Origin: a virus
Reading direction: 5' to 3' (one strand)
Length of the DNA: 64,000 nt
Virus record (IMG/VR): IMGVR_UViG_3300043436_005236
Coordinates: 10,188-74,187 of that record
The translations under genes were made by a program, and so were the position numbers. Under the pieces are notes generated by a model that worked only from the letters and a program-made list of their open reading frames with translations, searched no databases and was not told where the DNA came from. This document shows positions 6,626-16,376 of this stretch, one piece after another (position 1 is the first letter of the stretch; each line of letters opens with the position of its first letter).

Positions 6626-7882
6626 ATGGCCAAAAAAAAATCACAGCCAACAATTTTTATACAAATTGCAGCGTATAGAGATCCACAATTGCAGCCTACA
6701 ATAGAAGATTGTATCTCAAAAGCTAAAGCTCCTAAAAATTTACGCTTTTGCATTGCATGGCAGCATGCTCCGGAAGATGTTTTACCTGAAGATTATTTTA
6801 ATGACTCGCGATTTAAAATTATCGATATACCCTATCAAGAGAGTAAAGGCGCGTGCTGGGCGCGCAATCAAATTCAGCAGCATTATAACGGTGAAACATA
6901 TACATTGCAGCTAGATAGTCACCATCGGTTTGTACAAGACTGGGATCAACAACTGATCGATATGCTTGAAGGTCTTAGAAAAAAAGGTCACAAAAAACCT
7001 TTGTTAACCGGTTATATTTCAAGCTTTGACCCTGATAACGACCCAGCTGGCCGTGTTGATGCGCCGTGGAAGATGGATTTTGATAGATTTATACCAGAAG
7101 GTGCAATATTCTTCCTACCAGCTACAATACCAGCAGAGCAACGACACGAGCCCGTGCCTTCACGATTCTATTCAGCACACTTCTGTTTTACTGATGGTAT
7201 TTTCTGTAAAGAAGTGCCACATGACCCCGAATATTACTTCCACGGTGAAGAAATATCTATTGCTGTACGAGCATTTACATGGGGCTATGATCTATTTCAC
7301 CCCAATAAAGTTATTGCTTGGCACGAATACACGAGAAAAGGTAGAACAAAGCAGTGGGACGATGACAAAGATTGGGGTATTCGCAATGAAAAATGCCATT
7401 TAAAGAACAGAAAGTTATTTGAGATGGATGGTGAGGTTCGTGATATAGATTTTGGTATATATGGATTCGGACCGGTAAGAACACTGCAAGAATATGAACA
7501 CTATGCAGGTATAAGCTTTAAGAAAAGAGCTATTCAACGCGAGACATATAACCACATACCACCACCAAATCCACAATACAAGACGCAAGAAGAATTCGAA
7601 GCCTCGCTGCTTCATATCTTTAAGCACTGTATTGATATTACCTATACGCAGGTACCTGAAAAGGATTATGAGTTTTGGGTTGTTGCGTTCCACGATGAAA
7701 AAGACGATACTCTTTATAGGAAAGATGCACATATTGATGAAATTAATAATATGATGCAGGATCCTGACGGGTATTGTAAAATTTGGAGAGACTTCCAAAC
7801 AACCTCTAAACCAAAATATTGGGTTGTATGGCCATATAGCACATCAAAAGGATGGTGTGATAGAATAACCGGTAATTTATAA
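6626..7882 (+). CDS. Polypeptide GlcNAc-transferase-like glycosyltransferase (GT60 / Pfam 'GlcNAc', Skp1 Gnt1-like)
   Basis: Motifs IFIQIAAYRD, SKGACWARN, LQLDSHHRFVQDWD (DSH metal motif), FYSAHFCF, VPHDP, FHGEE, RAFTWGYDLF, WHEY. ATG at 6626 preferred over TTG at 6611. Confidence 0.85.
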   Translation: MAKKKSQPTIFIQIAAYRDPQLQPTIEDCISKAKAPKNLRFCIAWQHAPEDVLPEDYFNDSRFKIIDIPYQESKGACWARNQIQQHYNGETYTLQLDSHHRFVQDWDQQLIDMLEGLRKKGHKKPLLTGYISSFDPDNDPAGRVDAPWKMDFDRFIPEGAIFFLPATIPAEQRHEPVPSRFYSAHFCFTDGIFCKEVPHDPEYYFHGEEISIAVRAFTWGYDLFHPNKVIAWHEYTRKGRTKQWDDDKDWGIRNEKCHLKNRKLFEMDGEVRDIDFGIYGFGPVRTLQEYEHYAGISFKKRAIQRETYNHIPPPNPQYKTQEEFEASLLHIFKHCIDITYTQVPEKDYEFWVVAFHDEKDDTLYRKDAHIDEINNMMQDPDGYCKIWRDFQTTSKPKYWVVWPYSTSKGWCDRITGNL

Positions 7883-7885
7883 AAT

Positions 7886-13357: not shown

Positions 13358-13412
13358 TATACGTATTTTCTAAACCACGTTGTTGTTATTTAATCATTAG
13401 GTAGGAGTATAA

Positions 13413-16376
13413 TTACGTTACAACCATCCCATTGCTGTATGTACCTTCTGGTGTATGTACTGTTTCAAAGTACGGAGTTTTCCAATCAGATTTTAAGTAA
13501 CAAGCAAGAGCTCCACTAGGTCCAGCGGTATTAGCAGCCGCGGTAATTTCCCATCCAATATCAGTCATTTTCATAATAACAGAACCTATGTTCGGGCAGG
13601 GATCTCCTGCACTGTTGTAAGCGGCGAAGTTTCCATTCCACGCACAACTACCCAGTTCGCGGTACACTCGTACGCTGTAAGATCTAGCAAAATATGGTGG
13701 ATTGTCTGTCCAGCTAACAGTATATTGAGAGTTGAAGAAATCATAAACATAACCCGCAATAAGATGAGTTTGGAAAGTTTCTACACCATCGCGGTAAACT
13801 GCCCAGCCTCCAGATCGGAGGAACACACCATTGAAGCCCTCGCCGTAACCAAGGCCAAGACCCGGTAATATTACCTTTTCTCTGACTACACCACCTGAAA
13901 GCGGTGTAAGTAACCCAACCGCAGAAGGTAAATGATCGTATTCTGCAGTCCATTGAACATAGCCAGCTGTTTCATCATCTGGATCCGGATACAGTGGAAC
14001 AGAATAACCAGGGTACCAACCACAATTCTCTAACACCGGCGTCGGCGCTGGTGTAGCAGTATACGTCGGTGTCGGCGTCGGTGTTTCTGTTAATGTCGGA
14101 GTTGGTGTCGGTGCTTCTGTTAATGTCGGTGTTGGCGTCAGCGTTGGTGCTGGTGTTTCTGTTAATGTAGGAGTTGGCGTCGGCGTCGGCGTCGGTGTCG
14201 GCGTCGGTGTTTCTGTTAATGTCGGAGTTGGCGTCGGTGTCGGCGTCGGTGTTTCTGTTAATGTAGGAGTTAGCGTCGGTGTTTGTGTTAATGTCAGTGT
14301 AGGCGTTTGTGTTTGTGTTCGTGTGGGTGTAACAGTGCGCGTAGGCGTCATCGTAGGTGTAACAGTACGCGTAACTGTTTGAGTCGGTGTTAGTGTAGGT
14401 GTCGGCGTCGGTGTTTCTGTTAGTGTTGGTGTTGGGGTTGGGGTCGGAGTACCAGTTACAGAGGTTTGCGTAGGTGTGAGGGTAGGTGTTAATGTCTGTG
14501 TAGGTGTTGATGTCCGTGTGGGTGTTTGAGTAAGTGTTAGTGTAGGTGTCTGAGTGAGCGTCAGTGTAGGTGTTAGCGTCGGTGTTAGTGTAGGTGTTTG
14601 TGTTGGTGTTAGCGTTGGTGTTTGTGTTAATGTCAGTGTAGGCGTTTGTGTTTGTGTTTGTGTAGGTGTAACAGTACGCGTAGGCGTCATCGTAGGTGTA
14701 ACAGTACGCGTAACTGTTTGTGTTAACGTTGGTGTCTGTGTTAATGTAGGAGTTGGCGTCGGTGTCGGCGTCGGTGTTTCTGTTAATGTAGGTGTTTGTG
14801 TTGGTGTTAGCGTTGGTGTTAGCGTTGGTGTTTGTGTTTGTGTTTGTGTAGGTGTAACAGTACGCGTAGGTGTTTGTGTAGGCGTAACAGTGCGCGTAGG
14901 TGTAGGTGTTGGCGTGCCAGTTACTGATGTCTGAGTGAGCGTCAGTGTAGGTGTTGATGTCCGTGTAGGTGTTAATGTCCGTGTGGGTGTTTGAGTAAGT
15001 GTTAGTGTAGGTGTCTGAGTGAGCGTCAGTGTAGGTGTTTGTGTAGGCGTAACAGTGCGCGTAACTGTTTGTGTTAGTGTAGGTGTAGCTGTTGATGTTG
15101 ATGTTTGTGTCGGTGTCGGTGTCAATATAACAGGTTCAAAATCGCAAGTTATGTTTGTAAGCGTTGGCGTAGCTGTAGGTGTTTGTGTAGGTGTCTGTGT
15201 AGGTGTTAGCGTTGGTGTTTGTGTTGGTGTTTGTGTTGGTGTTTGTGTTGGTGTTTGCGTTGGCGTCCGTGTAGGTGTAACAGTGCGCGTAGGCGTCATC
15301 GTAGGTGTAACAGTACGCGTAGGTGTCATAGTAGGCGTAACAGTCTGTGTTGGCGTAGGCGGCGGTGTTGTTCCAACAGTAGCAGTTTGCGTAGCTGTCG
15401 GAGTTACTGTCTGCGTTACCGTCTGCGTTAGCGTTGGTGTTTGCGTCGGTGTTAGCGTTGGTGTTTGCGTCGGTGTTAATGTTGGTGTTTGTGTTGGAGT
15501 TGGTGTCTGTGTTAGTGTCGGTGTTAATGTTTGCGTTAGCGTTGGTGTCAGCGTTAGTGTTGGTGTTGGCGTAGCAGTACTTGTTACAGTAGGTGTAGGT
15601 GTAGGAGCAGGCAGAACAGAAATAGCTGTAAAGCTCGTAGCGCTCCCCCTCGTATTACCTACCAAAACAGTATATGTAGTGTTTATTAAAGGGGAAACTA
15701 CATACATACCACATAGTGGTATGTTTCTCGTCGAAAAATCACCACGAGCAATCTCTGCATTTATACTCTTCCATGAAAGGATAGCCGAACCTCCATATTC
15801 GATTACTGGTCGCGATGTAAAGAGCTCTACTTCTGGTAAAAGCTTAACAGGTACATTGCTTAAAGAACCTACATATGTTTGCCTGTTATTATTTCCTTCA
15901 AAATTAAAAAAAGTAAAATTACCTTCTGAAGGAATAATTTGCGTGTTTATTATATCAAAATTTCCTATTTCGTCATAAAAGGAATTTTGAAATATGTTAA
16001 TAGGCTGAATTATACCAACTGTCGCGCCATTATTATATACAAAAAGAAATTGTGCTGTTAGAGGCGCGTTATAACTACTCAACGTATTGTAATATCTATG
16101 TGTATACTGAGTCGCAATACTACCACCTATTTTACCGTTTACGATTTCATTAAAAATAGACTGCTCTTTATAGTCAAAAATAAGATCCTTTTGAAAAAAC
16201 TCCTTACTACCATCCCCCCAGTCGATTTTCAAAAACAAAACATCATATGACTCTTCATTTACCCCTGTTAAAACAAAATTTACAGCAGAGCTGCCTTTTA
16301 TATCGAGCGGTGCCTTAAAAATAACATTGCTACCCTCTACAACAGGTAAGTCGTAATAGATATTAGCGTAATTCAT
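13413..16376 (-). CDS. Mucin-like Thr/Pro-repeat virion protein with N-terminal PKD/Ig-like domains
   Basis: 987 aa. IDWGDG (PKD-like), Ig-like GGSAILSW...[10 protein letters not shown], about 520 aa of TPT repeats, then a C-terminal globular domain. Confidence 0.8.
14035..15610. repeat. Low-complexity coding repeat encoding TPT/TRTVTPT/TETPTP units
   Basis: Visible tandem GT-rich repeats with internally duplicated blocks. Confidence 0.9.

Follow-up and report, generated by a model that had tools for sequence, protein, structure and literature searches.

Glycosyltransferase (GT) family GT60 is grouped with GT27, the family of polypeptide GalNAc-transferases, by the O-glycosylation of Ser/Thr residues in polypeptides; the two share a DxH signature that replaces DxD, and GT60 has been reported from prokaryotes and protists only (PMC7185993). 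Here we describe a cassette of four genes, headed by a GT60-family gene, in a 64-kb stretch of DNA (the window) taken from the 74-kb IMG/VR viral contig IMGVR_UViG_3300043436_005236, whose completeness is estimated at 35%. The cassette stands beside two genes whose products, P0005 and P0006, carry long Thr/Pro tracts, and the recurrence of this combination in many phages and some Bacteroidota suggests that the phage probably sugar-coats its own proteins. Judged by its gene content, the source is a large uncultured freshwater T4-like myovirus.

The protist GT60 enzymes offer a parallel for the first step of such a pathway. P0001, the first cassette protein, falls in the same family (PF11397) as Dictyostelium pp-alphaGlcNAcT2/Gnt1 and Trypanosoma cruzi TcOGNT and has the same DxH motif, and its presumed acceptors are of the same character, namely Thr/Pro-rich mucin-like tracts; in T. 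cruzi, gp72 has a heavily glycosylated PTVTPTP... domain with phosphate-linked glycans (PMC3630849). In contrast to its protist relatives, the phage enzyme is predicted to be soluble and cytoplasmic, with no membrane anchor, rather than a Golgi protein, and the extension enzymes that follow it are of prokaryotic type. The donor, anomer and acceptor of the phage enzyme are extrapolated. For the modification of a virus's own proteins, the mycobacteriophages Che8, Corndog and Myrna use their own GTs on their own structural proteins (Freeman et al. 2023, as reported in PMC12619734), and in WIVsmall, a Che8-like F1 phage, an HtrL/YibB-like gene is annotated near GT genes (PMC10453261). The mycobacteriophages resemble the system proposed here in cytoplasmic self-glycosylation by phage GTs and in glycans placed on exposed extensions; their acceptors are short C-terminal tails of capsid and tail-tube subunits, whereas ours would be internal repeat stalks of 200-540 residues in separate proteins. 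Initiation also falls to another enzyme family there, and the host is of a different phylum.

Other parallels concern single enzymes of the cassette. The chlorovirus PBCV-1 protein A064R is a viral, cytoplasmic, multi-domain enzyme that combines GT domains with a sugar O-methyltransferase, as P0002 appears to do, and the N-terminal domain of P0002 matches it weakly (aa 8-138; A64R, a capsid-glycosylating GT, 2p6w, E 1.3e-4). The chlorovirus differs in the N-linkage of its glycans, which are carried by the major capsid protein, and in having neither repeat stalks nor GT60. P0004 shares the presence of two GT-A domains in one chain with the tandem-GT-A enzymes LARGE1, E. coli K4 chondroitin polymerase (K4CP), Pasteurella heparosan synthase 2 (PmHS2), LH3/COLGALT1 and R699, the last a Mimivirus protein and a viral example of the fold, but the relative orientation of the domains differs in the P0004 model. 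LARGE1 acts on the mucin-like domain of dystroglycan and LH3/COLGALT1 on collagen, both cases of protein-linked glycans. Among cultured phages, XacN1 encodes an orthologous GT60 (ORF334, 50% identity) and HtrL/GT-A (ORF330, 38%) in one cluster near ORF325; it differs in its short Thr/Pro linkers (about 25-40 aa) and in its accessory enzymes, a carbamoyltransferase and a GT9. By analogy, the system may work like protist mucin-type initiation joined to mycobacteriophage- or chlorovirus-type self-glycosylation, perhaps with polymerisation of the LARGE or glycosaminoglycan type, while formal membership is limited to the matched enzyme families.

On balance, we find it fairly likely that the cassette encodes a cytoplasmic protein O-glycosylation pathway of the phage whose preferred acceptors are (T-P-T-x)n tracts, foremost those of P0005 and P0006. 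This interpretation is supported by comparative genomics, that is, by domain identities, by gene arrangement and by co-occurrence in phages and bacteria. The genes and domains concerned are the following.

6626 (ATG)-7882, + strand: P0001, GT60-family gene
7886-9148, + strand: P0002, GT34-like domain (aa ~1-210) and class I sugar O-methyltransferase (aa ~215-400)
9145-10092, + strand: P0003, predicted GT-A fold
10096-11778, + strand: P0004, HtrL_YibB domain (aa 1-~285) and second GT-A domain (aa ~295-560)
11804-13357, - strand: P0005, 517 aa, with an N-terminal domain at aa 1-58
12548-13183, - strand: (TPTx)n tract of P0005, aa 59-270
11807-12547, - strand: C-terminal globular domain of P0005, aa 271-517
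11836-12229, - strand: hypervariable patch in the C-terminal tip of P0005, aa ~377-508
13413-16376, - strand: P0006, 987 aa, with an N-terminal part at aa 1-248
14016-15632, - strand: (TPTx)n tract of P0006, aa 249-787
13416-14015, - strand: C-terminal globular domain of P0006, aa 788-987

In the series of four + strand open reading frames (ORFs; 6626-11778), the first and third junctions are gaps of 3 nt and the second is an overlap of 4 nt; the series breaks into a - strand run of large fibre- or baseplate-type genes; only 25 nt separate the cassette stop (11778) from the P0005 stop (11804). A second contig, L003, is 99.3% identical and has the identical arrangement, and independent lake-water sequencing runs also contain the stretch, which rules out an assembly artefact. 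Near-identical DNA is present in lake-water and freshwater metagenomes from several studies, with no RNA data set among the runs listed, and a near-identity DNA search for the cassette among cultured phages gave no match.

The enzymes differ in how closely they match known families. P0001 aligns with PF11397 ('GlcNAc', GT60) at E 1.8e-70 and 238.6 bits against a cut-off of 21, over profile positions 1-44 and 93-351 of 352, and with phrog_24687 of PHROGs at 1.8e-176; its D97-S98-H99 (the DxH motif) is invariant among 44 non-redundant homologues. These matches point to a GT60-family enzyme, predicted to be soluble, for which we propose the role of initiating polypeptide glycosyltransferase. The N-terminal part of P0002 matches GT34 (PF05637, E 1.3e-13, 51.7 bits against 23), the best stretch covering only profile positions 33-100 of 238, and has a 'DID' motif; its matches to xyloglucan xylosyltransferase structures are weak (2e-3). 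The C-terminal part matches a methyltransferase family (phrog_21658, 1e-21) and, at aa 216-382, the structures of TylE (8ia9, 1.5e-15) and MycE (3ssm, 6.5e-14), and contains the class I S-adenosylmethionine-binding motif 'ILEIGVLDG', with generic Pfam methyltransferase families below their cut-offs. P0003 had no family match in profile searches. Its AlphaFold2 model (pLDDT 91.3) has a GT-A or nucleotide-diphospho-sugar-transferase fold at aa 1-~220 followed by a C-terminal beta domain, and nearly all of its Foldseek matches in the PDB have a GT-A or nucleotidyltransferase fold (E 5e-5 to 2e-3, TM 0.3-0.37), so that the model suggests a divergent GT-A-fold protein; in most of its homologues the corresponding part is joined to the C-terminal side of a GT34 domain (PF05637) in one chain.

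P0004 appears to be a member of the HtrL/YibB domain family (PF09612, 7.7e-17, 62.2 bits against a cut-off of 24.1) and not a YibB orthologue, as it scores 60.6 bits against the 264.9 required by the NCBIfam YibB equivalog TIGR02192. The chain has two GT-A domains, each half with its own set of invariant acidic residues of the catalytic motifs (D141; E385-D386-D387). The top Foldseek matches of its model (pLDDT 90.8) are two-GT-A enzymes at E 5e-10 to 1e-6, namely LH3, Mimivirus R699, LARGE1, K4CP, PmHS2 and COLGALT1; the TM-scores are low (0.22-0.26), so the modelled likeness to tandem-GT-A glycan polymerases is one of architecture only, and a polymerising activity would be purely hypothetical. 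Sequence searches of the PDB with P0001, P0003 and P0004 returned nothing meaningful, and none of the four proteins has a hydrophobic or membrane-spanning segment (the maximal 19-residue Kyte-Doolittle mean of P0001 is 0.87). By these assignments the cassette totals five GT-type domains and one sugar methyltransferase, all predicted to be soluble.

The two adjacent proteins stand out by their composition. Calling tracts as 30-aa windows with at least 60% T+P gives one of 212 aa in P0005 and one of 539 aa in P0006, and no comparable tract in the other 38 ORFs of the window; because of this absence, the tracts are not a matter of general phage composition. Both are imperfect arrays with a 12-nt period, encoding the four-residue unit T-P-T-x, and are about 25% Pro. 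No signal peptide or membrane-spanning segment was found in P0005. The N-terminal part of P0006 has a PKD-like 'DWGDGS' motif and weak, sub-threshold PKD leads in the ESM Atlas, where the C-terminal domain of P0005 had no usable match; matches of the Thr/Pro proteins to phrog_15511 were set aside, as they fall only on the low-complexity repeat. Thus an earlier note on this DNA, drawn from the sequence alone, was accurate in its description of a tightly packed four-gene + strand operon within a minus-strand structural region, ending 25 nt from genes for TPT repeats that it put at about 200 and about 520 aa. Profile searches and structure prediction, which it had proposed as a check, returned every domain as it had assigned them (GT60; GT34 with methyltransferase; HtrL with GT-A), and the third gene, which it had left as unknown, matches no family but has a GT-A fold in its model.

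The distal part of P0005 varies in natural populations. Comparison of our contig with L003 gave about 120 differences, and about half of them (62) lie in the 394-nt tip patch of P0005. In the lake runs X1 and X2, two alleles of equal length and similar depth coexist with identical flanks, and further variants occur in X3 and X4, from other lakes. Such variation is the pattern that would be expected of a receptor- or ligand-binding tip. A diversity-generating retroelement was considered as its source and rejected: the 74-kb contig holds no template repeat or second copy, and the substitutions are of all types, not adenine-specific.

The association between the enzymes and Thr/Pro proteins recurs across viral genomes. 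Scanning IMG/VR with P0001 gave 134 relatives; 80 loci were fetched and fell into 44 clusters at 90% GT60 identity. The HtrL/GT-A fusion belongs to the same cassette at 38 of these 44 loci, and 24 loci have a Thr/Pro-rich ORF no more than 300 bp from the cassette edge, 28 have one within 1 kb and 33 within 10 kb. Given a density of about one Thr/Pro ORF per 35 kb in whole GT60-bearing genomes, immediate adjacency at 55% of loci compares with about 6.5% by chance (nominal P ~1e-17); the loci share ancestry, so the P values given here overstate independence and are too small. Conversely, PF11397 was present in 12 of 47 viral contigs sampled solely by a TPTxTPTxTPTxTPT DNA pattern, and in 8 of the 13 that were at least 100 kb long. 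As a control we used contigs related by terminase, which are mostly short fragments. Fifteen of them, with 57-80% identity, were long enough to serve (at least 27 kb and up to 155 kb, together about 1 Mb), and these gave no PF11397 match and no Thr/Pro pattern match (33/44 versus 0/15, P = 2e-7; 12/47 versus 0/15, P = 0.03).

The usual order at these loci is Thr/Pro protein, GT60, variable enzymes, HtrL/GT-A, and a Thr- or Thr/Pro-rich protein. The variable interior includes GT34, methyltransferase, GT10-like, GT25, GT7C-like and carbamoyltransferase genes, and the accessory enzymes, in the studied phage as in its relatives, appear from their sequences to be of glycan-decorating types. GT25, the family of collagen galactosyltransferases, is found in some cassettes, and in a related phage a gene upstream of the GT60 cassette (L068, 989-4207) encodes 1072 aa with collagen triple-helix repeats (PF01391, 3.8e-83). 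The flanking Thr/Pro proteins belong to several families, with many singletons, and outside the near-identical L003 none of them matches the end domains of P0005 and P0006, except for weak matches (32-37%) to the 58-residue N-terminal domain of P0005 at three loci. One family, F3, has a conserved N-terminal domain of about 134 aa ending in 'PCC', followed by poly-Thr and Thr/Pro tracts; its gene comes directly after HtrL/GT-A in 17 of the 44 loci (for example L012 15048-15449, L037 16264-17007 and L016 17260-18683), some copies consist of the domain alone, and the studied phage has no counterpart.

The system is not special to the studied phage: it is widespread in large freshwater phages and occurs in XacN1-like jumbo phages and in a few bacteria. 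In a set of 50,697 phage records, relatives of GT60 and full-length relatives of HtrL/GT-A were confined to the same four cultured jumbo phages, XacN1, Xoo-sp13, CM1 and RAS14. The XacN1 cluster lies between replication genes and baseplate genes; ORF325, which adjoins both the cluster and the baseplate genes, encodes a protein of 3313 aa with two Thr/Pro linkers. Virions of XacN1 give at least two Schiff-positive bands, which the authors suggested to be products of the phage GTs; they noted both GTs and glycoproteins, without identifying the bands or linking GT60 to Thr/Pro tracts (PMC5852040). We found no description of a GT60 and Thr/Pro module in phages in the literature, the XacN1 paper coming closest.

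Bacterial GT60 relatives at 53-61% identity were confined to Bacteroidota in our search of bacterial genomes. Jiulongibacter sediminis JN14-9 and an Arcticibacterium metagenome-assembled genome encode GT60, a carbamoyltransferase and HtrL/GT-A, optionally joined to an FkbM methyltransferase, with a Thr/Pro protein of 262 or 326 aa directly upstream in divergent orientation. The Jiulongibacter locus also holds a second GT60 paralogue, a UDP-glucose dehydrogenase and an epimerase/dehydratase, and every profile match of its SDR enzyme is below its cut-off (UDP-xylose synthase being among the candidates). GT60 is rare in the order to which these bacteria belong (3 of 301 genomes). The bacterial Thr/Pro proteins (Jiulongibacter, L320 8944-9732; Arcticibacterium, L321 8657-9637) share a conserved C-terminal domain of about 60 aa and begin with 'NRRLA(L/I)(R/K)ELFLGSS', a twin-arginine motif with a hydrophobic stretch, a sequence that suggests Tat (twin-arginine translocation)-type export of a cytoplasmically glycosylated protein, or its anchoring in the membrane. 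That the trio is also found in cells, outside any fibre setting, is the best single reason for regarding the Thr/Pro protein as belonging to the system. Together with a G+C content of 32-37%, the bacterial trio also hints at a Bacteroidota host for the studied phage.

These comparisons allow a mechanism to be outlined. In the late phase of infection, expression of the cassette would coincide with that of the Thr/Pro genes and the structural genes, and soluble P0001 would add the first sugar, by family precedent an alpha-linked N-acetylhexosamine from a UDP-sugar, to Thr hydroxyls of the unfolded stalks. The tandem-GT-A protein P0004 would extend this sugar, possibly processively. Further residues would come from P0003, through its GT-A fold, and from the GT34-like domain of P0002, whose O-methyltransferase domain would then methylate a sugar hydroxyl. 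The products would be stiff, protease-resistant, hydrophilic bottle-brush stalks that separate a small N-terminal anchoring domain from a distal globular domain, the latter hypervariable in nature in P0005, as a binding tip would be. In this scheme we infer N-acetylglucosamine (GlcNAc) as the sugar, Thr as the acceptor, a methyl cap, and a place in the virion for P0005 and P0006 (a 'phage glycocalyx'); the identity of the sugar, the cap and the location are less certain than the glycosylation of the Thr/Pro stalks, and the hundreds of Thr residues that might be modified are an upper bound.

A broader reading, which we consider doubtful, places GT60 and HtrL/GT-A at the centre of a cytoplasmic 'proteoglycan' pathway shared by prokaryotes and viruses. 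By analogy, GT60 would prime Thr in (TPTx)n and its two-domain partner would polymerise a repeating glycan in the manner of LARGE1 or of the chondroitin and heparosan synthases; lineage-specific methyl-, carbamoyl-, fucosyl- and possibly sulfotransferases would diversify it; phages would build glycan-sheathed stalks with fast-evolving binding tips; and the Bacteroidota Thr/Pro proteins, with their twin-arginine N-termini, might be exported already glycosylated. New here are the tandem-GT-A-polymerase-like fold predicted for the conserved partner, and the hypervariable tip of a Thr/Pro protein in lake populations.

Several points weigh against glycosylation of the Thr/Pro stalks by the cassette, beside the shared ancestry of the loci mentioned above. 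Glycans on these proteins are a prediction from sequence and gene context, and we found no characterised prokaryotic or viral GT60 member in the literature, donor and acceptor being extrapolated from protists. We infer that P0005 and P0006 are virion parts solely from their position in the baseplate/fibre block, and their end domains match nothing known; in Pfam, PHROGs and NCBIfam, neither these domains nor the large flanking proteins had a match. Of the 44 GT60 loci, 11 lack a Thr/Pro ORF within 10 kb, a distance of more than 60 kb separates cassette and Thr/Pro genes in G003, and one lineage has its cassette next to the gene of a family B DNA polymerase. In a search with a positive control, neither GT60 nor HtrL/GT-A was detected in five large contigs that carry Thr/Pro repeats, of which three are at least 94% complete. 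Two weak matches of P0004 to DNA-directed GTs, discussed below, belong with these points.

Some of the same observations would suit a cassette that acts on other phage proteins, with the Thr/Pro stalks as minor targets or none at all. Its acceptors might then be, for example, the capsid, sheath or fibre shafts, as in mycobacteriophages, and the Thr/Pro tracts would be plain flexible linkers encoded, like the cassette, in a variable 'fibre' region. The near-complete Thr/Pro-bearing genomes that lack the cassette, the cassettes with no Thr/Pro neighbour within 10 kb, the Thr/Pro genes scattered elsewhere in GT60 genomes and the XacN1 bands that are not assigned to proteins would all fit this account. 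We nevertheless regard it as unlikely: Thr/Pro proteins of several families and singletons are immediately adjacent at 24 of 44 loci, the same trio occurs in bacterial chromosomes where there is no phage fibre region, terminase relatives without GT60 are also without the Thr/Pro pattern, and GT60 enzymes are known to act on Thr-rich mucin-type tracts. A much less probable variant retains the stalks as acceptors and replaces the acceptor residue, with GT60 modifying hydroxyproline rather than Thr, as in extensin- or Skp1-type glycosylation. Gnt1, the best-studied GT60 enzyme, acts on 4-hydroxyproline, and the tracts are about one-quarter Pro; yet no 2-oxoglutarate-Fe(II) prolyl-hydroxylase-type domain (PF13640) was found in G000, complete G001, G002 or G003, and Pro-poor poly-Thr tracts also flank relatives' cassettes (family F3).

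The remaining alternatives direct the enzymes at other substrates. About as unlikely as a different set of phage proteins is a host glycan, such as lipopolysaccharide (LPS), capsule or another surface polysaccharide, built or remodelled for superinfection exclusion or release, with the Thr/Pro proteins as unrelated neighbours. In its favour, the HtrL/YibB name goes back to a gene in the LPS-core region of E. coli, some cassettes, as well as XacN1, contain GT25 and GT9 relatives, and the bacterial locus has its UDP-glucose dehydrogenase and epimerase/dehydratase. Against this, the cassette enzymes have no membrane-spanning segment, P0004 is far below the YibB equivalog cut-off, and no flippase, polymerase or priming phosphoglycosyltransferase family appeared among the scanned genes of the cassette and of its relatives' interiors, several interior families being matchless and others outside the scan; the association with Thr/Pro proteins would be left unexplained in either direction. 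Least probable, in our estimate, is glycosylation of hypermodified bases in phage DNA as a defence against restriction. The C-terminal domain of P0004 matches the TET-associated GT (TAGT; 2e-4, below cut-off) and the T-even beta-glucosyl-HMC alpha-glucosyltransferase (phrog_842, 3.6e-5), and the cassette is near replication genes in one lineage and in XacN1, but both matches are weak and of a generic GT-A kind. G001, a complete relative, carries the cassette without a ThyA-family hydroxymethylase or a Tet/JBP oxygenase, the ThyA-like genes of G002 and G003 are more than 100 kb from theirs, and no source of hydroxymethyl-pyrimidine (ThyA-like hydroxymethylase or 5-methylcytosine oxygenase) was found in G001 or in our own 74-kb contig. 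GT60, GT34 and sugar O-methyltransferases lie outside the known DNA-modifying families, with no GT60 or HtrL in a preprint (10.1101/2023.12.21.572611), and the module is also found in bacterial chromosomes. Action on DNA and action on host LPS were both named by the earlier note as outcomes that would contradict its proposal, and both fared poorly, while the co-occurrence of GT60 with Thr/Pro-repeat genes that it had suggested looking for was found in both directions and against the terminase-related control.

The wider genomic setting of the cassette is given below. The - strand run ends, in this order, with a gp6-like wedge, a PKD protein, a 1450-aa protein, P0006 and P0005, and the start of P0006 overlaps the stop of the 1450-aa gene (ATGA, 16373-16376).

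3-3224, - strand: protein of 1074+ aa, two genes upstream of the cassette
3221-6553, - strand: 1110-aa protein
6601..6626, + strand: two T4 late-promoter-like TATAAATA motifs, 18 and 0 nt before the GT60 start codon
16373-24708, - strand: upstream block of the next three genes
16373-20725, - strand: 1450-aa protein
16393-16400: TATAAATA motif before P0006
20732-22825, - strand: 697-aa PKD-domain protein (PKD_4, 2.7e-6)
22855-24708, - strand: gp6-like baseplate wedge (phrog_219, 1e-40)
26112-27092: gp44-like clamp loader
40819-43380: tail sheath
43999-45705: large terminase
55153-55971, - strand: sulfotransferase gene (PF13469 1.8e-14, PF00685 1.8e-12)
56892-59081 and 59091-62423, - strand: large proteins of 'STIGGGxCNTASG'-type repeats

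The assignment to the T4-like myoviruses draws on the tail sheath, large terminase, clamp loader and baseplate wedge genes, along with weaker domain matches. The genes for the 1450-aa and 1110-aa proteins also border the cassette in G001. The Gp6-like Pfam matches of the wedge protein are weak and below cut-off (PF21379 7e-5, 23 bits against 27), as T4 baseplate and neck domain matches in the window are weak in general, that to the neck falling below its Pfam cut-off. We take TATAAATA to be the T4 late-promoter word. Of its 23 occurrences in the window, ten precede a start codon of matching strand by 0-24 nt (6601, 6619, 16393, 43386, 45709, 46736, 52478, 54806, 54812 and 63402), serving eight genes that include those for GT60, P0006 and the tail sheath, against a chance expectation of about 0.3 by rough arithmetic. 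Several copies are just 6 nt from the ATG, which would mean very short leaders or a different role for the motif. Scans for sigma-70 promoters and terminators gave site numbers not above those in shuffled sequence.

Some neighbouring genes deserve mention in their own right. The protein encoded at 3-3224 has Ser/Thr-rich, Pro-poor tracts (STTSQISALSTTT...) at aa 425-522 and 878-981, which may be another kind of acceptor or plain fibre shaft. The 'STIGGGxCNTASG'-repeat proteins, rich in Ser, Gly and Cys, resemble fibre or beta-helix shafts and match no family. The sulfotransferase gene lies within the structural block, beside a 295-aa gene and two fibre-like proteins, and its product could sulfate a glycan or a protein.

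To our knowledge, glycosylation of particles by phage enzymes is documented only for some actinobacteriophages, and otherwise for giant viruses of eukaryotes. Since XacN1 and Jiulongibacter sediminis JN14-9 are in culture, the glycosylation of Thr/Pro stalks proposed here is directly testable. If it is true, a mucin-type pathway, begun by an enzyme family that protists use and acting on hundreds of residues per protein, would be widespread in large freshwater phages and extend to cultured jumbo phages of Xanthomonas and Stenotrophomonas as well as to a few Bacteroidota, and GT60 would gain its first prokaryotic or viral function. Such a pathway would also supply a compact group of soluble enzymes with which mucin-like glycoproteins could be produced in bacteria. 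For the phages themselves, it would account for the many Thr/Pro 'linker' proteins in aquatic phage genomes, and would bear on how particles adsorb, how sticky they are, how well they resist proteases and how the immune system recognises them.

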